Source: a virus (lineage: Duplodnaviria; Heunggongvirae; Uroviricota; Caudoviricetes). Taken from it: a DNA stretch of 37,974 bases. This document shows positions 7,997 to 23,277 of this stretch, in pieces. The translations under genes and the position numbers were made by a program. The DNA is taken from the IMG/VR virus record IMGVR_UViG_2548877011_000015, one strand, 5' to 3'. How positions within the stretch are numbered: position 1 is the first letter of the stretch; the number at the start of each line of letters is the position of its first letter. The notes beneath the pieces were generated by a model. The model saw nothing but the letters and a program-made list of their open reading frames with translations, was not told where the DNA came from and did not search any database.

Positions 7997-8090
7997 TTTC
8001 GCGGGTTAACAATTCGTGCTCTTAATAATACCAGGCATATCAGGCTGATGAACGTAAAAAAACGTTTTACATCAGTAAGATTATTATACA

Positions 8091-8106
8091 CTGTAAATAT
8101 AAACAG
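8091..8106. promoter_or_regulatory. LexA (SOS) box CTGT-N8-ACAG
   Basis: ctgtaaatataaacag is a perfect CTGT-N8-ACAG match with AT-rich spacer, ~45 bp upstream of the tum-like ORF start. Confidence 0.7.
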
Positions 8107-8149
8107 TAGTTATACATACAGTATTGCGTGTGGTGTCATAGGAGGAAAG

Positions 8150-8338
8150 ATGCAGGACTATTTTTTGGAGTCTTTGAAGCTCCAGCGCATTGATTTTTTT
8201 CTTAAGCTTGTAGCGGCTAGTGAGTGTAGTGATGAAGAGAAGGGGCTGGCTCTGCAGTGGGTTTCTGAATTGACTGATGAACTCATGGCAAAAATCAGAA
8301 CCCACGAATACAACCGCTCAATGGATGTCATCAGCTGA
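8150..8338 (+). CDS. Tum-like SOS-inducible protein, N-terminal ORF (62 aa)
   Basis: ATG at 8150 with AGGAGGA SD; directly downstream of the LexA box, in the position of 186 tum. Confidence 0.45.
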   Translation: MQDYFLESLKLQRIDFFLKLVAASECSDEEKGLALQWVSELTDELMAKIRTHEYNRSMDVIS

Positions 8339-8348
8339 GGTGACTTTT

Positions 8349-8582
8349 ATGCGCATTGAAATAATGATCGATAAAGAGCAGAAGATTAGCCAGTCTACCC
8401 TGGACGCCCTTGAATCCGAGCTTTACCGCAATCTGCGCCCCCTGTATCCCAAAACGGTAATTCGTATCCGTAAAGGTAGCTCTAACGGTGTGGAACTGAC
8501 CGGACTGCAACTGGATGAAGAAAGAAAACAAGTGATGAAAATTATGCAGAAGGTGTGGGAAGACGACAGCTGGCTGCATTAA
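8349..8582 (+). CDS. DinI-family protein
   Basis: 77 aa MRIEIMIDKEQKISQSTLDALESELYRNLRPLYPKTVIRIRKGSSNGVELTGL...WEDDSWL is collinear with E. coli DinI (MRIEV...); GAGGTG SD upstream. Confidence 0.8.
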   Translation: MRIEIMIDKEQKISQSTLDALESELYRNLRPLYPKTVIRIRKGSSNGVELTGLQLDEERKQVMKIMQKVWEDDSWLH

Positions 8583-8590
8583 GAAACGTT

Positions 8591-8620
8591 GCCCCCAAGA
8601 GGATTTATCCTGTTGGGGGG
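8591..8620 (+). terminator. stem-loop after DinI-like gene (terminator candidate)
   Basis: gcccccaagaggat tt atcctgttggggg imperfect palindrome immediately after the stop, followed by a weak T stretch (agtttggg). Confidence 0.4.
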
Positions 8621-9070
8621 AGTTTGGGCAACGAGTGAAATGAGGTGTAAGGTGGGCGGTCATTTTGATAAGTGATCGTCCACTTTGTGTCAGAACCTGA
8701 TGTTTGTTGTACATTCGGACGAATAGGCGGCGTTGTTTGCTTTAAAAATAAAACAGGAACACTTTGAGAAAGTGAACAGGTGTATTTATTTGTTGCTGAT
8801 GAATGAGAGTAACTCTAATTTGGATAATTAGCTTGATAATAGGTCAGACGAAAATAATATTCCAGCACACTTTTGGTCGCAACAGGCATTAGTTAATTTT
8901 AAGTGATAAATTTTTATCCATAAATTAACACTAGTGTGTCATCTAGCGAAACCGAATCGCTTTAACTCATAACTTGAAGTTGAATCAGTGGGGTAGCAGT
9001 AGGCATGCCGGAACTGATAAACTGTGCAGAAGGCTAAACATTCATTCACTCGTGAGATAGTAGCTAAATT

Positions 9071-9937
9071 ATGCAAAGAATTATTCCTGATAAAAATTGG
9101 TGGGAAAAAGAGCGTATTAATCGTAAAGCATCATCAATATGCCCATATGCTAGTTCATACAGATGTCCTCGATACTATCAGAGTGTAGTTTTGCTCTCAA
9201 GCATCAATGTGATAGCTGGTATGGCAACTAGGAAAGAAAAAGAGTTGGGTGAATTTTGGGAAAGAACCACTTTCTCATCTTTATGTGATGAAGAAGTCCC
9301 TACAGTTACTACAAAAGAATATGGCGGCCTTGCATCAGTTAGTAATTTTTGCCCAGAAATATCATTTAGATATTTACACTACTACGCCGATTATATGTGT
9401 AAATATGTTGATGAGATAGATCAGGACACTGGCAGGCGTATTGCGGAAAAAGATAATTTAGAAAATGATTGGAAATATACATGGATGTCAGTCAATCCTA
9501 AATTTTATTTAGATTGCGATGTTTTTGAAAGTGTCAAAAATTTCAATGAAGAATTGGCTAGTGATTACTTAAAAAGATTGCACCCAAATATCGTTCAGCA
9601 AATAGATAGAATGAATAATTGCTTGGATAATAATGATCCGGCAGGTGCACTGCACGCAGCCTCTAATATTTTAGAAACTATGGCTAAGGAAATCACTCAA
9701 AACCCGAATGTGGCAAATGAGTCATTGGGTGGTTTTTTTAAACAGTTCGAAAAAATGTCAAAATTACCTAAGAATCTTATTGATGCTGTTAAAGATATTT
9801 ATGATTTACGCAACAAATTACCTACTGCTGGACACGGAAGCTTGAACAAGCCTGAATTGACTATGGTAGAAGCTATAACTATTGCGGCAATGACAAAGGC
9901 GATTTTAGAAATTGAATATCGAAGCAAAGCCATCTAA
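9071..9937 (+). CDS. hypothetical protein (288 aa), accessory island; possible Abi-like
   Basis: ATG at 9071; low-GC; N-terminal Cys cluster CPYASSYRCPRYY; C-terminal LRNKLPTAGHGS (R-N...G-H-G) reminiscent of Abi_C/HEPN-type motifs; occupies the P2 tin/old hotspot between the replication module and cos. Confidence 0.5.
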   Translation: MQRIIPDKNWWEKERINRKASSICPYASSYRCPRYYQSVVLLSSINVIAGMATRKEKELGEFWERTTFSSLCDEEVPTVTTKEYGGLASVSNFCPEISFRYLHYYADYMCKYVDEIDQDTGRRIAEKDNLENDWKYTWMSVNPKFYLDCDVFESVKNFNEELASDYLKRLHPNIVQQIDRMNNCLDNNDPAGALHAASNILETMAKEITQNPNVANESLGGFFKQFEKMSKLPKNLIDAVKDIYDLRNKLPTAGHGSLNKPELTMVEAITIAAMTKAILEIEYRSKAI

Positions 9938-10064
9938 CAAACCAAATTATGTGGTTCAAATTCCCGCTACACTTCTGTGTTGCCGCCAGCGTCTACTTAT
10001 CGCTGTGAGTTCAACGGGTGATGATGCGTTAGAGATCTCTGAATCGATTGAAGTCTAAGGTTGT

Positions 10065-10086
10065 CAGGGCTGTAACAGCAGCCCTG
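10065..10086. terminator. perfect 8-bp stem hairpin between convergent genes
   Basis: cagggctg taacag cagccctg between the 3' ends of the 9071..9937 (+) and 10187..10840 (-) genes. Confidence 0.35.
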
Positions 10087-10186
10087 TGTCATGAATGGAT
10101 TGCATATTAATTGACGAAGAACAGACTAATATCATCGATAGCTGTTTTCAAAAATAGACCAATAACAAACTGAGATGTTATCGTAT

Positions 10187-10840
10187 TCATTTCGATGATT
10201 GATCCAGATGTGTATATAACCATTGAAAGAGTTTTCTAATTTTTGTGATAGTATCTTTTAAATAATTTAAGGAGATTATTATATTATTTTCATTGTTTAA
10301 TGAAAGAGTAGGTGTTTTATCAATGATATTTTTTAAGGCTACAGCTGTGCTCATTTTTTTAATGTCTCCATTAGCATGAACTATGCAATTCCTTACTTTG
10401 TTAAACTCTGTCATGAATTGCCACTCTTGTGACAGGCCAAAGTTTATATCCATTAATTTTGTTAAATATCTTTTTGCTTTGTGGATGCCATCACCATTAA
10501 AATCGGTTACTGATATATTGGTGTTTACAATCCTTTGACATATATTGCAATAGTCGTTTAGGTTGTGCTCTAAGCATGAGTATAAAGATACCAAAGCAGA
10601 TTTATTAAAAATATTTGGTTGTATGTTAACTAAGAAATCATATTGCTCTGAATAATAGTCTTCTAAGTAATTAATATAATCGTCAGGAGCATTCTTTTTT
10701 TCATCTTCATATGCTTTTTTTAATTCCGCTAAGTCAACTCTGTTTTGGCCGCCTGCTCCTAGGATATATTTTTCGAAATCATCAATCTGCGCTTCAAGTG
10801 AATATCTTGATAGCTGTGCGAAAAGTTTGTATTTACTCAT
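10187..10840 (-). CDS. hypothetical protein (217 aa) with HEPN-like Rx4H motif
   Basis: ATG at 10838-10840; low-GC; VRNCIVHANG matches the R-x4-H HEPN signature near the C-terminal third; accessory hotspot location. Confidence 0.5.
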   Translation of the reverse strand: MSKYKLFAQLSRYSLEAQIDDFEKYILGAGGQNRVDLAELKKAYEDEKKNAPDDYINYLEDYYSEQYDFLVNIQPNIFNKSALVSLYSCLEHNLNDYCNICQRIVNTNISVTDFNGDGIHKAKRYLTKLMDINFGLSQEWQFMTEFNKVRNCIVHANGDIKKMSTAVALKNIIDKTPTLSLNNENNIIISLNYLKDTITKIRKLFQWLYTHLDQSSK

Positions 10841-11183
10841 CGGTATGCCATTCCTTTTTAATTATAAACCTTTGGATTAAAAGGTGCTGAAAATAGTAAC
10901 TCATTATTTTTGTTTGTAAAGGGGGTATTGTTTTTACTAGATCAAGATAAAACAATGGGAATATCCGCTTTTCGCTCACAGCGGACTTTCATCTTTGTAA
11001 ACCCGTATGATTAGCTTTTCAGCGGTCATTCAGATACGGATTTACGCTTCCCTTGGCTGTGCATGACTATGACGCATGAGATCGCATGATCGTTAGAGGA
11101 TCGTTTTTGCTGAGGCCAGCCAGAACTGGCGTGCTTTTGCTTATGTCGTGCAGGTGCATGAAAACCACTACATAAAGCGGGCA

Positions 11184-11202
11184 GGCGTGGCGGGGATACG
11201 AT
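11184..11202. other. cos-like cohesive-end site
   Basis: ggcgtggcggggatacgat followed by tgcgcgct, compared with the P2 left end GGCGAGGCGGGGAAAGCAC TGCGCGCT as recalled from memory; sits in a GC-normal segment (about 10960-11220) between two AT-rich islands. Confidence 0.5.
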
Positions 11203-11270
11203 TGCGCGCTAGGTATAAGTGTGTAAAATAATTCCAAAATAAATCATCCTAATGAAGTGAGAGGGTAATA

Positions 11271-12920
11271 ATGTTAGTCAAGAAAAATAAAAATTATAGT
11301 TTATATTTTTTAATTACAAATAATCAACAGATATCTGATTCTGGTAATTATATAAAAATAGTCCCATCAAGAAGCGATTGGAATGATTTTGGATATTTGA
11401 GTAGAGTCGAAATATCTATTTTTAATAAAAAAGAGTGTAAGGATATAATTTCACTGAATGGTTATATTGGTTTTTTGAATTCAGAGGAGGAACGAAATGG
11501 AAAAGCAGAACTGATAAGGCGAGTGAAGAAAAAGGAAGAATCTAATTTAAAGGATGAGGGGTTTAATGATTATTTTGTCATGCTTCAGGATATGAATAAT
11601 TATCGAAGACTAGTAAGATTTTTTGGGGTGAATGAATCCAAATATATATTAAATTTCATTAATGATGTTGTTTCTAAGAAAAGTGACGCTAGTGCAGAGA
11701 ATTTGAGGAAAAAAGCAATCTCTTCTGATATCTTTAATAAATCTTTCATTAGAGAGTCTGAGTCGTATTTTACTTTCAAAAATGCAGGAACAGTTCTTTC
11801 CGGTATTCAATATGAGGAGTTGGGTAATTTATCACAGCACATCAAGATTAGCTATTCGAATAAAGTTAATGAAGAAGATGTATCTTATGTTTTTAATTTT
11901 GATCACGAGCATGATTTACCAAAAAGAATTTCCATAATTATAGGCGAGAATGGTGTAGGAAAAAGCCAAACGCTTAGAGAAATCGCATTGGCTGCGATTA
12001 AAGGAAAGGATAATTTGGTGGCTGTAGTTGATTCTAACGGTGTGAGCATTGAAGAACGAATTCAAATTAGTAGGCTCATTGCTTTTTCTCCAACAAATGA
12101 AAGTAAGTGTTCATTTCCAACCGATAAAAGAATAAAATCATTGATATGGTACAAAAGATTGACTTTAAATCGTGAATCAAAATCCAAATTAAACTTGAAT
12201 GATTTAATAGTGCAACTAGCGAGGAGTAACGACGCTATCGGCTATAATCAAAGGTGGAATATATTTGTTGATGCACTGAGTGTTCTAAATAGTAACAACG
12301 ATTTAGTAATCAAATGTAGCGGTGAAAATTCACCATTTGTTAAATTAAATGAGCTTAATTCTCGAGGCGAAGAATCCAGACTATCATTATATTCTGAAAT
12401 TATTCTCTCTGGCGAGCCTTTGAGGCTTGTTGAAAATAAATGTTACCCTTTGAGTAGTGGGGAAATATCGTTTATTAAGTTTTGTGTACAAGTCTGTTTG
12501 TATATTGAGAATGGGACTCTTCTATTAATAGATGAGCCAGAAACACATCTCCATCCTTCATTTATTAATAAATTTATGGCATTGCTTGATAATTTATTAG
12601 AAAAGACAGGCTCTTCAGCTATCATAGCAACGCATTCGGTTTATCTTGTTCGGGAGGTTTTTAAGGAGCAAGTGACAATACTCAGAAGACGAGATGATGG
12701 GGTAATTGTTAGCGAAAAACCGAGATTGAGTACTTTTGGGGCGAATATAGGAAATATCTCATATTTTGTTTTCGGTGAGAGTGAACCAACTCAAATTTTA
12801 AATAAAGTAAAAAATAATATAATTGCAAAGAATATGTCTTGGGATGATGTTGAATCTAAATATAGCGAGGACTTATCACTTAATGTATTAACTGCGTTGA
12901 GAAATGAAATAGGTAATTGA
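11271..12920 (+). CDS. ABC/SMC-like ATPase with N-terminal extension (Septu PtuA-like)
   Basis: 549 aa; Walker A GENGVGKS (~aa 225), Walker B LLLIDEPETHLHP (~aa 417), H-loop ATHS; ~215-aa N-terminal domain of unknown type; GAGGGT SD; low-GC; stop is 1 nt before the next gene's start. Confidence 0.7.
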   Translation: MLVKKNKNYSLYFLITNNQQISDSGNYIKIVPSRSDWNDFGYLSRVEISIFNKKECKDIISLNGYIGFLNSEEERNGKAELIRRVKKKEESNLKDEGFNDYFVMLQDMNNYRRLVRFFGVNESKYILNFINDVVSKKSDASAENLRKKAISSDIFNKSFIRESESYFTFKNAGTVLSGIQYEELGNLSQHIKISYSNKVNEEDVSYVFNFDHEHDLPKRISIIIGENGVGKSQTLREIALAAIKGKDNLVAVVDSNGVSIEERIQISRLIAFSPTNESKCSFPTDKRIKSLIWYKRLTLNRESKSKLNLNDLIVQLARSNDAIGYNQRWNIFVDALSVLNSNNDLVIKCSGENSPFVKLNELNSRGEESRLSLYSEIILSGEPLRLVENKCYPLSSGEISFIKFCVQVCLYIENGTLLLIDEPETHLHPSFINKFMALLDNLLEKTGSSAIIATHSVYLVREVFKEQVTILRRRDDGVIVSEKPRLSTFGANIGNISYFVFGESEPTQILNKVKNNIIAKNMSWDDVESKYSEDLSLNVLTALRNEIGN

Positions 12921-12921
12921 A

Positions 12922-13785
12922 ATGAATAAATTAAAAAGACCTGTTTTTAAAGATTATTCTGCATTTAAAAAACTATCTGCAAATAAGAGATTAAAACATC
13001 ATTCTGTTCTGAATGGACAGGATACATTTATACTTAATGCATATAGATCGTACATAAAGAATAAAGGATATCTTAATGTCAATTCTTGTGGCGTATTGAG
13101 TAACAATATTGCTGAAGCTTTGAAATATTATTATAACAATCCCGCAAAGTGTTTATCTATAATTGATGATATAAGAGCAGCTAATTCTAACTCTCTATGT
13201 CCAATGTGTGGTTCAATGCATAGCGGGACTTTGGATCATGTTTTACCCAAGGAAAACTATCCAGAATTTTCTTTATTCACTAAGAATTTGGTTCCTGCTT
13301 GCAAATGTAATACTTTCAAAAGTACTACTATAGCTAATTCTGCAGGCCATCGGATGCTGCATCCATATTTTGATAATATATTAAAACAAAGATTAATATG
13401 TGCTAATTTTTCTAAATTAGGGCGAACACCTACAATTGATGTAAAAATCATAATTGACCCAATGTCACCAGAATATAACAATGTTAAGTATCATCTTGAT
13501 AATGTTGTTATCAAGAATAATATTAAGGGGTATTTGTCTGAACAATGGGAGTCGTTTTACTTATATCCTGAGCTTGTTATTAGAGGACTGAATAAGAGTC
13601 TTTCTACTTATAGCGATGTATATGAGTTGTTGACTCGCGAGTTGTTGCTGTTGGATGAAAAACATAAAGGTAAAAATAATTGGAATTCGGTTTTTGTAGC
13701 TGGGTTAATTCGACCTGATGTGATTAGGTGGATACTCTGTGAATTACATTTAGGTAACAGAAGTCCAGACGGTCGTCTCATATGA
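12922..13785 (+). CDS. HNH endonuclease (Septu PtuB-like)
   Basis: 287 aa; HNH core CPMCGSMHSGTLDHVLPKENYPEF...NLVPACKCN; tightly coupled to the upstream ATPase. Confidence 0.7.
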   Translation: MNKLKRPVFKDYSAFKKLSANKRLKHHSVLNGQDTFILNAYRSYIKNKGYLNVNSCGVLSNNIAEALKYYYNNPAKCLSIIDDIRAANSNSLCPMCGSMHSGTLDHVLPKENYPEFSLFTKNLVPACKCNTFKSTTIANSAGHRMLHPYFDNILKQRLICANFSKLGRTPTIDVKIIIDPMSPEYNNVKYHLDNVVIKNNIKGYLSEQWESFYLYPELVIRGLNKSLSTYSDVYELLTRELLLLDEKHKGKNNWNSVFVAGLIRPDVIRWILCELHLGNRSPDGRLI

Positions 13786-13795
13786 TTTTTTGCAT

Positions 13796-13821
13796 CTTCA
13801 GCGTGTATCTGCACGCTGAAG
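13796..13821. terminator. 10-bp perfect stem hairpin between PtuB-like gene and Q
   Basis: cttcagcgtg tatctg cacgctgaag, preceded by a T6 run on the + strand; separates convergent transcription units. Confidence 0.4.
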
Positions 13822-13892
13822 AAATTCATAAAAACTGCTGGCTATTAATAACTTTTTTTAGTTGTGTTAAAGAACCTCATTTAGTTATTACG

Positions 13893-14924
13893 TTAAGTAG
13901 CTAGTTTATAACTATCAAATTTAACAATGTTCTCACTTACCAATTTATTTATTTCCATCATTCTTTTTTGTAACGGTATTAACTCGTTACGTACAAACAC
14001 CAGGCTCGCCTTCTCCACATCCCCAAACCCCCCGACATTATTAGGCATAATCCCCATCATTTGCGGTGGCACACGATGCGCCGCCATCATGTCATCCCGG
14101 CTCACGTTCTTGATGTTCAGAAACTCATCCTTCGCCGCGACTTCTGACAACGGGATGATCTGAAGCCCGTCCTTTTTGCCGTTAGGCGAGTACATAAACA
14201 GATTGCGGAAGTTACCTGGTCCTTTGGCGCTTTTCATCGCATTGCGGAGGTTGTTCACATCCTCCTGGTTTTGCGCGGCATCGGTCATGTACATGATGAA
14301 GCCTGCATGACTGCCGTTAATGTAATACTTTCGGCGGAACAGCGTGGCGGACTCGTTGAGCAGGGCTGACGGAATGGCAGAAAGGTAACCTGGCAGGCCG
14401 TAGATCTCCTGGTTGATGTCCGGTTCCATCAGATGAAAAATGCTGCCTTTCGTGAACTGATACGGCTGGGTTGTCATACCGTATTGCACAAACCAGTAGG
14501 TATCCAGGTCTAACCCGCGTCGGGTGTATTTTGCCAGAGCAGGCTCAAGAGCGATGACCTCTCCGAACCGGTTTGTGCGTTTCTCCAGGTAAGCGTTACC
14601 AAATACCAGATAATCCTGCACAAAACGTGAAAAAGCCTGCTGGCTGAGCAGCGGGTGAGGGATGTAGGTACTGGTCAGAATGTTGCACTTTACTGCAATC
14701 GGGGAGCTATGATGTACGGCAGCGCGGAAGGTTCGCGCCAGTCCGTCAAAACTCACTGGCGGCTCATACCAGCGATCTGTCTGTACGCATTCCACATAGT
14801 CCAGTAGTTCACGGCGGTCCAGAACCGGAACGGGATCGCCGAAGCTGAATGCTTCGGCTGAAGCCTGGTTTTTATGCTGGATCTGTTTCGTCGACGCAGC
14901 GCGGTTTTTCTTAATCTTTCCCAT
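13893..14924 (-). CDS. Q: portal protein (P2 gpQ-like)
   Basis: 343 aa; first late gene next to cos on the minus strand; ATG at 14922-14924 overlaps the P stop (ATGA). Confidence 0.85.
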   Translation of the reverse strand: MGKIKKNRAASTKQIQHKNQASAEAFSFGDPVPVLDRRELLDYVECVQTDRWYEPPVSFDGLARTFRAAVHHSSPIAVKCNILTSTYIPHPLLSQQAFSRFVQDYLVFGNAYLEKRTNRFGEVIALEPALAKYTRRGLDLDTYWFVQYGMTTQPYQFTKGSIFHLMEPDINQEIYGLPGYLSAIPSALLNESATLFRRKYYINGSHAGFIMYMTDAAQNQEDVNNLRNAMKSAKGPGNFRNLFMYSPNGKKDGLQIIPLSEVAAKDEFLNIKNVSRDDMMAAHRVPPQMMGIMPNNVGGFGDVEKASLVFVRNELIPLQKRMMEINKLVSENIVKFDSYKLAT

Positions 14925-16690
14925 CAAAAAATCTCCACAATATTGCTGGTATTGGCGGATTCGCCCTGCAGCGGTTCGTTAAACAATGCGTGCATCGTTG
15001 CCCAGGCCAGATCGGCGTGGCTGGCTTCTTCGCTGCGGCTGGCTTCATAGGTTGGGCGGTTGCCACTGGCGGTGGTGGCGCGACGGATTGCCATGAATGA
15101 CTGCGCAATGTCGGTGTGCCCGGCGTCAAACTCCAGACGGCGGTGGCTGATAATGTCGTAGGCCTTGAGTACCAGGGCGTTTTTAACGTTGGGGTTGTAG
15201 ACAAACTCCCGGACGGCAGGAAAGAACGCTTTCACGTTCTCATAAACCCCGTGACCAACGCCGGTCGAGTCGATACCGATGTATGTCACGTTGTACTGTT
15301 CAGTCAGTTTTTTGATGGCATCAGCCTGGGCGCGAAAGTCCATCCCGCGCCACTGGTGACGCTCAAGAATGCGGAACTTGCCGCCCGGCACGGCTGGCGG
15401 AGCCACCACCACGCATCCGGCACTGTCGCCGTTCTGCGTACCTTTTGCCGGGTCATAACCGATCCACACTTCGCGCCAGCCAAACGGGCGCAGGGCCAGT
15501 GCATGAAAATCGGTCCAGACTTCCCAGCTGTCCACCATACACGCCTGCAGTTCGCTGAGCGGGAACACGGACGCGAGATCGTCCACAAACTCGCACATCA
15601 GCAGGTTCTGGTATTCGTCCGGGCTGTACTCCATGCGCAACTGGTCAAGGTCGAACAGGTTACAGCCGCCGCGCACTGCATCTTCCACGGTGACTATCTG
15701 GCGGTACTGCCCGTCTGCGCACAGCAGGCCGGGGGCCAGATTGCTGTGGGACAGGTCGATGTCCACCTTATCGGCTTTATTGCGCCCACGGTTGAACAGC
15801 GCACCGGACCAGAACGGATAAGCACTGTGTGTCAGGCTGGATGGCGTGGAAAAATAGGTTTGTCGCCATTTTTTGTGGATAGCCATACCGGAAGCCACTT
15901 TGCGCAGCTCCTGGAATTTCGGTATCCAGAAATATTCATCCAGATACAGGTTGCCGTGGTAACTCTGGGCCGTGCGGGCATTGGTGCCGAGGAAGTAAAG
16001 CGTGGCTCCGTTAGGAAGCACCATCGGATCGCCTTTCAGCTCCACCTCGACTTCTTTGGCGAAGTCTATGATGTACTGCTTAAAGACGTGAGCCTGTGCC
16101 TTGCTGGCGGAAAGAAAAATCTGGTTACGTCCGGTAAGCAGAGCGTCAATCAGGGCTTCACGGGCAAAGTAAAAGGTCGCGCCGATCTGGCGTGACTTCA
16201 GCAGGTTGCGGATGCGGTTGGTTTTTCCGGCTTCCCACCAGTGGCGCTGGTAGTTAAACATGGAGGAATGGAAGATTTCTTCCAGCTTCTCAATCTGCTC
16301 ATCGGTGAAAACATTCTTTTCCGGCTGACGGCGCGGGCCTTTGTTGCGGTTGGCGACGTTAGGGTTTAAGTCGGCTTCGTTGCCGCCATTGTTAAACTTG
16401 CCGATCCGCGCGTGGCGCTCCGACTGGCGCGCCAGCAGGTCAATTTCTTTGAAATCTTTCCCTTCTTTGTGCTCCTTCATAATGAGCTGGCAGTAGCGTG
16501 CGGCGGTGGTGAGCTGCATCTGATCCAGCGGCCCATAGTCACCCCACTTGTCGCGTTTTTTCCAGCTGTGAACGGTTGCAACTTTCTCGCCCAGCATTTC
16601 AGCAATGCGGGCGACGCGGTATCCCTGAAAGTACAGCAGCATGGCCTGCCGACGGGGATCGAGATCTGCGGGTGTCAGTGTGGTGTTCAT
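14924..16690 (-). CDS. P: terminase large (ATPase) subunit (P2 gpP-like)
   Basis: 588 aa, P2 gpP size and position; divergent from the O-N-M operon. Confidence 0.85.
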   Translation of the reverse strand: MNTTLTPADLDPRRQAMLLYFQGYRVARIAEMLGEKVATVHSWKKRDKWGDYGPLDQMQLTTAARYCQLIMKEHKEGKDFKEIDLLARQSERHARIGKFNNGGNEADLNPNVANRNKGPRRQPEKNVFTDEQIEKLEEIFHSSMFNYQRHWWEAGKTNRIRNLLKSRQIGATFYFAREALIDALLTGRNQIFLSASKAQAHVFKQYIIDFAKEVEVELKGDPMVLPNGATLYFLGTNARTAQSYHGNLYLDEYFWIPKFQELRKVASGMAIHKKWRQTYFSTPSSLTHSAYPFWSGALFNRGRNKADKVDIDLSHSNLAPGLLCADGQYRQIVTVEDAVRGGCNLFDLDQLRMEYSPDEYQNLLMCEFVDDLASVFPLSELQACMVDSWEVWTDFHALALRPFGWREVWIGYDPAKGTQNGDSAGCVVVAPPAVPGGKFRILERHQWRGMDFRAQADAIKKLTEQYNVTYIGIDSTGVGHGVYENVKAFFPAVREFVYNPNVKNALVLKAYDIISHRRLEFDAGHTDIAQSFMAIRRATTASGNRPTYEASRSEEASHADLAWATMHALFNEPLQGESANTSNIVEIF

Positions 16691-22201: not shown

Positions 22202-22646
22202 ACTGCAGAAAGTGGACGACTGGCTGAGTGCCTTGCTGGCGAATCTGGAACCAGCCGCCAGAAGCCGCATGATGCGCCAGCTGGCGCAGGAACTGCGCCG
22301 GACACAGCAGCAGAATATCAGGATGCAGCGCAACCCTGACGGCAGCAGCTATGAACCGCGACGGGTAACAGCACGAAGTAAAAAAGGGCGCATCAAACGT
22401 CAGATGTTTGCAAAGCTGCGCACCACAAAATACCTGAAAACCGCCGCCAGCGCGGATTCTGCCAGCGTACAGTTTGAAGGTAAGGTGCAGCGCATTGCCC
22501 GCGTTCATCATTACGGCCTGCGCGATCGCGTCAGTCCAAAGGGGGGAGTCATTAAGTATCCATCCCGAAAATTGCTGGGTTTAAATGAACATACTGAAAA
22601 TGAAGTAAGAGATTTACTTTTAAAGTATTTTTTGATGAAAAATTAG
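22194..22646 (+). CDS. S: tail completion protein S (P2 gpS-like)
   Basis: 150 aa, GTG start overlapping R stop; C-terminal YPSRKLLG motif as I recall it from gpS-family proteins. Confidence 0.7.
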   Translation: MAELQKVDDWLSALLANLEPAARSRMMRQLAQELRRTQQQNIRMQRNPDGSSYEPRRVTARSKKGRIKRQMFAKLRTTKYLKTAASADSASVQFEGKVQRIARVHHYGLRDRVSPKGGVIKYPSRKLLGLNEHTENEVRDLLLKYFLMKN

Positions 22647-22651
22647 AATGT

Positions 22652-23182
22652 TTACGCACTTAATAAACTTAAATAACTTTTTATGCTTTGGCAAAAAGGG
22701 AAAAGGTCTATTTTAATTTTCCAGTTTTTTTTGTTTTGAACCCCAGAAGCAATAATAGAACCATCCCAATATTTTATTCCATTTTTGCCGGTCTTTTTTG
22801 TTAACTCAAAACTTAATGCGTGAATAATTTTATTGCAGCATTCGCGTATAGAACCTTTAACATGACCATCTATAACAAAAAGTATATTTTCATGTTCTTC
22901 AAATGCTTCTTTCTCAGGTGAGTAATCTGGGTTCCACTCATGTTCACTAGTGTCTTGGAGAATTCGTAGTTTTGTACAAAGGCTAATAAGATTGTTGCTA
23001 ATGGTATATTCCAACCATCCGTTGTACGATAACTCCTCCATTTCAAATTCAGTTACTATAGAATCATCATATACTTTCTGTGTGGAATATATACGCTGTA
23101 AATAAAATTCAGATGAACAGCATAATTGCTCAATTATTCTTGCGTGTTCTTCTATAGCGTAATAATCAATTGGATGGCTCAT
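22652..23182 (-). CDS. hypothetical protein (176 aa), moron at the P2 orf30 site
   Basis: Low-GC gene on the opposite strand, inserted between tail genes S and V; ATG at 23180-23182 with AAAGG SD (track ORF extends to 23221). Confidence 0.55.
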   Translation of the reverse strand: MSHPIDYYAIEEHARIIEQLCCSSEFYLQRIYSTQKVYDDSIVTEFEMEELSYNGWLEYTISNNLISLCTKLRILQDTSEHEWNPDYSPEKEAFEEHENILFVIDGHVKGSIRECCNKIIHALSFELTKKTGKNGIKYWDGSIIASGVQNKKNWKIKIDLFPFCQSIKSYLSLLSA

Positions 23183-23277
23183 TCTTTTACCTTTCTTCGA
23201 TTGGAATTGTATTTGTGTCATTTACCACACAAGGACGTATTGATGCCATAGATTCAAGGTCCGTGCAACCTAACCCT

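Follow-up and report, generated by a model that had tools for sequence, protein, structure and literature searches.

The closest described relatives of the locus reported here are ATPase–nuclease systems. Septu (PtuA/PtuB; structures 8EE4, 8EE7 and 8SUX; Doron 2018) consists of an ATPase gene followed by an HNH nuclease gene, stands alone and is found on mobile elements; PtuAB is reported to attack DNA and/or tRNA (PMC12819146; PMC13096335). Type I-A retrons (Ec78/Eco7, Ec83) also combine an ABC ATPase with an HNH effector, and their PtuA has an N-terminal extension. P2 Old, Gabija GajA and PARIS AriA/AriB belong to the same ATPase superfamily and share the role of cargo located near the cohesive-end (cos) site of P2 and P4 elements. 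The cos-proximal region between gpA and gpQ is a published P2 defence hotspot and a reservoir of anti-phage systems (Rousset et al. 2022, PMC9122126). We analysed positions 11184-13821 of the viral record IMGVR_UViG_2548877011_000015 (37,974 nt; "the window" refers to this whole stretch), which is a P2/186-like Escherichia coli prophage. The locus is probably a two-gene anti-phage defence module of Septu type, formed by an ABC/SMC-like ATPase and an HNH nuclease of the divergent PDC-M01 family and carried as rare cargo of the gpA-gpQ hotspot.

Two adjacent genes encode an ABC ATPase and an HNH nuclease

The first gene (11271-12920, plus strand) encodes a 549-residue ATPase of ABC/SMC type, and the second (12922-13785, plus strand) encodes a 287-residue nuclease of the HNH (beta-beta-alpha-Me) type. 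A preliminary description of this DNA had reported two tightly coupled low-GC genes of these lengths, and the open reading frames (ORFs), their junction and the base composition all agree with it. The ATPase start codon is preceded by a good Shine-Dalgarno sequence (GAGAGGG), and the junction TGA-a-ATG leaves a spacer of one base, which is consistent with translational coupling. The guanine-plus-cytosine (GC) fraction of the operon was 0.318, as against 0.563 in the phage structural genes; GC was low across the whole interval ~8600-13890. The DNA of the locus was 100% identical to NZ_CP148579, in which RefSeq labels the two products "AAA family ATPase" and "HNH endonuclease".

All motifs quoted in the preliminary description were found in the order given there. 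In the ATPase, the Walker A motif GENGVGKS begins at residue 225, the Walker B motif LLLIDEPETHLHP at residue 417 and ATHS at residue 453; the ABC signature LSSGE begins at residue 394. In an alignment of 44 sequences, Walker A (G225-S232), LSSGE, D421 and E422 of Walker B, and H455 were invariant, and the C-terminal helical tail (residues 508-548) was conserved. In the HNH protein, CPMCG begins at residue 93, LDHVLP at residue 104 and NLVPACKCN at residue 122. The His-Me finger C93xxC96...D105-H106...N122...C127xC129-N130 was invariant among 43 family members. This catalytic core (residues 93-130; 13198-13311, plus strand) contains the Zn-binding pairs C93/C96 and C127/C129 and the catalytic residues D105-H106, N122 and N130; the protein also has a conserved C-terminal domain of ~150 residues.

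Profile and structure searches indicate a Septu-like pair

In hidden Markov model (HMM) searches of both proteins, the PADLOC matches pointed to ATPase–nuclease defence families. Among the best 25 rows of PADLOC-DB v2 matches, the top profile was PDC-M01A for the ATPase (2.4e-55, residues 27-541) and PDC-M01B for the HNH protein (8.2e-34, residues 2-264). The two genes are adjacent and in the same order as in PDC-M01, which is an unvalidated bioinformatic group that is silent on mechanism. The Septu PtuA1 profile PDLC00282 aligned to residues 32-535 of the ATPase (1e-31) and scored below PDC-M01A; AriA and ATPase-Toprim gave weaker matches. Pfam assigned the ATPase to AAA_21 (61 bits, E = 2.4e-16; cut-off 27) and AAA_15 (33.4 bits; cut-off 32.1). 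For the HNH protein there was no above-threshold match in Pfam, and phrog_10378, annotated as "HNH endonuclease", matched it at 2.6e-22.

The AlphaFold2 (AF2) model of the ATPase had a predicted local distance difference test score of 80. When this model was compared with the Protein Data Bank (PDB) by Foldseek, the best matches were PtuA of retrons Ec83 and Ec78 and E. coli PtuA, which makes PtuA its nearest structural neighbour. A PDB search with the ATPase sequence returned generic ABC-core matches only (UvrA; PtuA at E = 1.7e-3); PDB entries of the same superfamily include OLD (6p74) and AriA (8ux9). Searches of the PDB with the HNH protein, as a single sequence or as a profile, gave no match below E = 0.01, the nearest being S100-A9 (~0.03) and the HNH endonuclease 4h9d (0.12).

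Homology to Septu was detected for both proteins by hhalign, with the Septu pair of the P4 hotspot of Rousset et al. (sequences from their Table S1B) as reference. The ATPase aligned with PtuA at 96% probability (E = 2.3e-9), the 111 aligned columns running from the signature motif to past the H-loop, and the HNH protein aligned with PtuB at 93% probability (E = 2.6e-7) over 78 columns comprising the HNH core and a downstream HPxxD motif. The locus shares with Septu an ABC/SMC-type ATPase with intact Walker A, signature, Walker B and H-loop, and an adjacent co-directional HNH partner. The preliminary description had recognised the Septu architecture in this pair. The PtuA1, Foldseek and hhalign matches support the likeness; however, PDC-M01 fits better and the NCBIfam models were far from satisfied, so that the assignment does not extend to canonical Septu.

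The pair also differs from Septu in several respects. In canonical PtuA the Walker A motif lies within the first ~40 residues, and in the PtuA of Rousset et al. it occupies residues 14-21, at the extreme N-terminus; in the ATPase described here it occupies residues 225-232, behind a domain of 186 residues. The segment inserted after Walker A and before the signature motif is also distinct (template modelling [TM] score ~0.3). The HNH partner has 287 residues versus 198 in PtuB, the ~90 additional residues forming N- and C-terminal parts. These differences bear on whether the pair could be an ordinary Septu that works exactly like E. coli PtuAB, with a PtuA hexamer and two PtuB, restraint by ATP, tRNA-Tyr or DNA as target, and the N-terminal domain as a minor decoration. 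Coverage of nearly the whole ATPase by the PtuA1 profile, N-terminal domain included, would fit such a pair, as would the PtuA structures at the top of the structural matches and the PDC-M01 calls in the Bacillus cereus group, which fall on proteins that are also called as Septu (PMC11811056). Given the displaced Walker A motif, the larger HNH partner, the restriction of homology to the cores and the failure of the NCBIfam models, however, we consider ordinary Septu unlikely.

Several points weigh against classing the locus as a Septu-type defence module. Detectable homology to bona fide PtuA and PtuB is limited to the catalytic cores, that is, to the 111 and 78 columns given above. The NCBIfam PtuA model NF041760 scored 40.9 bits (cut-off 500) with the ATPase, and the retron-system HNH model TIGR02646 scored 13.4 bits (cut-off 52.15) with the HNH protein; both models are retron-associated, and their low scores exclude that subfamily, not Septu at large. 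TM-scores of the ATPase model to the PtuA structures were ~0.3, and the Pfam HNH models matched only 4 of the 43 family members. The promoter scan showed no site between cos and the ATPase start codon; the sites that it called overall were not more numerous than in shuffled sequence. PDC-M01 is an unpublished PADLOC candidate (PMC11811056), our literature search found no experimental test of the ATPase–HNH family, and the role of the N-terminal domain is one that we infer purely by analogy. Because homology is confined to the cores and both NCBIfam scores are far below cut-off, the pair is, as judged from its sequences, Septu-like in architecture and not a canonical member of Septu.

It is possible, though doubtful, that the divergence goes further and that the pair is a distinct ATPase–HNH defence type and not a Septu subtype. 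The N-terminal domain would then be a phage-sensing module of a new kind that recognises another phage component, and the larger HNH protein would attack a target other than that of PtuB.

Other known classes were considered and rejected. A retron was rejected on the basis of neighbouring genes without a reverse transcriptase (RT) domain in Pfam and the absence of any Rfam match at E <= 0.1 in 8000-14000; moreover, the N-terminal domain is much larger than the retron PtuA extension and unrelated to it. OLD, PARIS and Gabija carry a TOPRIM or DUF4435 nuclease, whereas the nuclease here is an HNH on a separate protein, and no TOPRIM or DUF4435 match was found in Pfam or among the best 25 PADLOC rows. 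TIGR04435, "restriction system-associated ATPase", was rejected at 73.9 bits (cut-off 300).

The ATPase carries a family-specific N-terminal domain

The preliminary description had noted a region of ~215 residues before Walker A that could not be assigned to any domain. Structure prediction retains an unassignable domain and reduces its size. In the AF2 models, the N-terminal domain (N-domain; residues 1-186; 11271-11828, plus strand) is a beta-sheet followed by a helical bundle, and residues ~188-224 are predicted to belong to the ABC head, as the beta-strands usually found ahead of Walker A. The head (residues ~188-549; 11832-12920, plus strand) comprises Walker A (225-232), the insertion (~240-390), LSSGE (394-398), Walker B (417-424) and the H-loop histidine H455.

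The N-domain is predicted with confidence to fold independently. Sixteen of its residues were invariant among the aligned family members, several PDC-M01A profiles span it, and no relative of it was found in solved structures (PDB) or in predicted viral structures (BFVD). The N-domain is thus a real, family-specific domain, unassignable to a known fold.

A search of 1.84 billion representative proteins with an N-domain profile recovered 271 clusters at 50% identity. Nearly all members were proteins of 530-580 residues with the same architecture, or fragments. The N-domain had been taken as a hint of a divergent or new subtype; the pair is indeed Septu-like and non-canonical, but a domain found in 271 clusters is not peculiar to this locus. 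A few proteins were longer, at 705-812 residues, and had a further domain ahead of the N-domain, namely AbiJ_NTD3 in P0305 and DUF4062 in P0316 and P0323; in P0320, an unassigned extension of ~160 residues precedes the N-domain. Both AbiJ_NTD3 and DUF4062 have been associated with defence or conflict systems.

PtuA of retron Ec78 has gained an N-terminal extension, which binds the sensing complex of RT and noncoding RNA (PMC12819146). Because the Ec78 extension contacts the sensor, we read the N-domain as a putative sensor or regulator, and it is the most likely place in the pair for such a function.

The two genes form a self-contained, mobile module

To survey pairing, one genome per species was scanned and 79 loci were analysed with family HMMs. 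In 78 of the 79, the ATPase gene was immediately followed by a co-directional HNH gene. The paired loci span Gammaproteobacteria, Verrucomicrobia, Elusimicrobia, Bacteroidota, Myxococcota and Actinobacteria. A third conserved gene was sought within 3 kb in the 78 loci and none was found, no other gene being common to more than four loci. The pair is a self-contained two-gene module. Across Proteobacteria, ATPase homologues were full-length (~550 residues) with 44-52% identity, and HNH homologues had 287-288 residues.

The family occurs mostly outside phages, and the contexts of its members are mobile or rich in defence genes. The Salmonella operon is part of an integrase island that also encodes HipA, a ScoMcrA-type HNH protein and ArdC; in Pseudoxanthomonas, it lies in an integrative and conjugative element (ICE), beside a RES-domain gene. 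In Citrobacter, an operon with 79% identity occupies the same slot of P2-like prophages, with the same cos immediately upstream (L010, L011 and L012). The HNH gene of L010 is shortened to 213 residues. L011 and L012 have lost the portal-to-lysis region or have a truncated portal gene. These prophages are decayed yet carry the operon; the cassette therefore persists in decaying prophages. Among 5426 complete E. coli genomes, the operon was present in three, as copies 99.6-100% identical. A megablast search of GenBank phages revealed no copy.

Such a distribution might also be expected of a pair that serves the mobile element itself, through addiction or exclusion, as a toxin–antitoxin-like or an anti-plasmid or anti-mobile-element system that stabilises the prophage or island or excludes related elements. 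The presence of the module on prophages, ICEs and integrase islands, its retention in decayed Citrobacter prophages without head genes and the Pfam name of AAA_21, "putative AbiEii toxin, Type IV TA system", are in line with this. However, the architecture and profile matches indicate ATPase–nuclease defence families, no conserved antitoxin-like small gene adjoins the pair, and the tested cargo of the hotspot is anti-phage (PMC9122126). We regard a role confined to the element as quite improbable.

It is very improbable that the locus is an inert remnant, that is, cargo no longer expressed or functional. The lack of a promoter-like site in the upstream scan and the truncated HNH gene of one Citrobacter copy could be taken as signs of decay, but the two AT-rich ORFs are uninterrupted and keep all their catalytic residues, the copies in three E. 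coli genomes are nearly or fully identical, and the good Shine-Dalgarno sequence and one-base gene spacing fit translational coupling.

The module lies in the cos-Q interval of a variant-cos lineage

In NZ_CP148579, the gene order is integrase, CI, CII, Fil, Dam, replication endonuclease A, DinI-like, two hypothetical genes, the ATPase gene, the HNH gene, portal, terminase, capsid and tail genes. The operon thus lies between gene A and the portal gene Q, has low GC and is variable among close relatives, as is cargo of the gpA-gpQ hotspot. Precisely this arrangement appears in Table S5A of Rousset et al., with WP_000960488 and WP_024199288 among its entries; the HNH protein is listed there as "hypothetical", no Septu label is given, and the arrangement is not among the systems reported as tested in the text of that paper (PMC9122126).

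The left edge of the cargo slot is a cos-like site, GGCGTGGCGGGGATACGAT (11184-11202, plus strand), and low-GC cargo starts ~10 nt to its right. The site has three mismatches to 186 cos, and no second site of this kind occurs in the window; TGCGCGC comes directly after it, as it does after the P2 and 186 sites. At 18 of 19 positions it agrees with the cos that is annotated in Salmonella phage SEN8 and in Escherichia phage Cartapus. Between cos and Q, SEN8 carries a hypothetical gene and an HNH gene, and Cartapus carries a DUF4145 gene. Ralstonia phage RSA1 has four ORFs from the start of its linear record to Q, with no cos annotated. Homology to the right flank of P2/186 stops ~7-10 nt past the cohesive end in the window, and likewise in SEN8, Cartapus and the Citrobacter prophage.

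The HNH gene has cos on one side and the portal and terminase genes on the other, and SEN8 too has an HNH gene at this place, which raises the question of a packaging accessory (a terminase-associated HNH protein such as HK97-like phages have) or of a homing endonuclease. This explanation is effectively refuted, because of the distribution of the gene: it was absent from 5423 of the 5426 E. coli genomes and from 119 of the 120 listed contigs with the same cos, and the family is coupled to the ATPase in 78 of the 79 loci and occurs mostly outside phages. Furthermore, P2 and 186 package DNA with no HNH gene of this kind, SEN8 and Cartapus also lack it, and the HNH protein of SEN8 is unrelated to the one described here.

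The preliminary description had regarded a position on the Q side of cos as unusual, pointing out that P2 tin and old lie on the other side. The latter is correct: tin and old lie across cos in P2, and only ~170 nt separate cos from Q in P2 and 186. The former is contradicted by a comparison of the cos-Q interval across P2-like elements. Scans of IMG/VR yielded at least 120 contigs per cos type (L095-L214 for the variant, L215-L334 for P2/186), which were not dereplicated. Among the matches listed, 79 of 87 GGCGTGGCGGGGATACGA contigs with a detectable portal gene had at least 500 nt from cos to the Q stop codon; the median was 1692 nt and the maximum 3535, and a P2-like interval of 164-186 nt was found in eight. 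In contrast, 79 of 93 listed contigs with the P2/186 cos, GGCG[A/T]GGCGGGGAAAGCA, had less than 250 nt (median 176), and nine had 500 nt or more. Cargo on the Q side is the rule in the variant-cos lineage. The operon itself was found in 1 of the 120 variant-cos contigs listed (L101).

These findings suggest that two cos lineages of P2-like phages may place cargo on opposite sides of cos, and that their terminases may have different sequence requirements to the right of cos. Rousset et al. do not distinguish cargo to the left of cos from cargo to the right (PMC9122126). The split between cos variants bears on how P2-type hotspots are delimited and mined.

Two IMG/VR contigs with a P2/186-type cos (L283 and L323) carry an adjacent distant pair, with scores against the family HMMs of 99-122 bits for the ATPase and 67-71 bits for the HNH protein. 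More divergent ATPase–HNH pairs therefore also ride contigs with a P2/186-type cos (P2- or P4-type elements).

Proposed mechanism and significance

For complex formation, trigger, target and phenotype of the ATPase–HNH pair, we infer the following scheme. By analogy with PtuAB, the ATPase would oligomerise through its nucleotide-binding heads and keep the nuclease in an inactive state. A cue supplied by the infecting phage, read most likely by the 186-residue N-domain, would alter the state of the ATPase. The HNH nuclease would then be released or activated and would cut nucleic acid, by DNA nicking and/or tRNA cleavage. Such cutting would stop the superinfecting phage or the infected cell, giving an abortive or restrictive defence expressed from the prophage.

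The locus is already catalogued as a PADLOC candidate, as PHROGs of unknown function and in the table of Rousset et al., and it is uncharacterised. If the module is functional, a widely distributed Septu-like branch, with ~270 N-domain clusters in several phyla, would join the experimentally accessible defence repertoire. In retron PtuA, N-terminal additions rewire the response of the effector. With its compact shape, confident model and lack of a known fold relative, the N-domain lends itself to study as a candidate phage-sensing module of a new kind, mounted on an ABC-ATPase/nuclease chassis. As a natural small cassette (2.6 kb) in an E. coli prophage, the operon should be easy to clone.

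Flanking features and neighbouring low-GC genes

A perfect 10-bp hairpin, CTTCAGCGTG-tatctg-CACGCTGAAG (13796-13821), lies downstream of the HNH gene, and its end coincides with the end coordinate, 13821, assigned to the locus in the preliminary description. It is a candidate bidirectional terminator. The terminator scan did not call it, and it is not a canonical intrinsic terminator, a U-tract being absent on both strands. The Citrobacter prophage has a similar hairpin at the corresponding position (L010, ~10525-10545). Between the hairpin and the Q stop codon, no further terminator-like structure was found. The portal gene Q (13893-14927, minus strand) is convergent with the HNH gene. A repeat search around the operon gave short AT-rich chance matches only and revealed no element boundaries flanking it.

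Two low-GC genes lie on the A side of cos. One (9071-9937, plus strand) encodes 288 residues with a weak match to Abi_C, the abortive infection C-terminus (E = 0.0017). The other (10187-10840, minus strand) encodes 217 residues with a weak PADLOC match to RTasHEPN (1.1e-5) and an RNCIVH motif (Rx4H, HEPN-like) at residue 150. Both are labelled "hypothetical" in RefSeq and in Table S5A of Rousset et al.; on the basis of these matches, they may be additional defence genes.

A second low-GC island was observed at ~22500-23200 (GC 0.336 in 22501-23000), between the R/S-like tail-completion genes and the baseplate gene V. The island coincides with WP_000019233, a hypothetical gene on the minus strand (L001, 23469-23999), and is probably another moron slot of the prophage.

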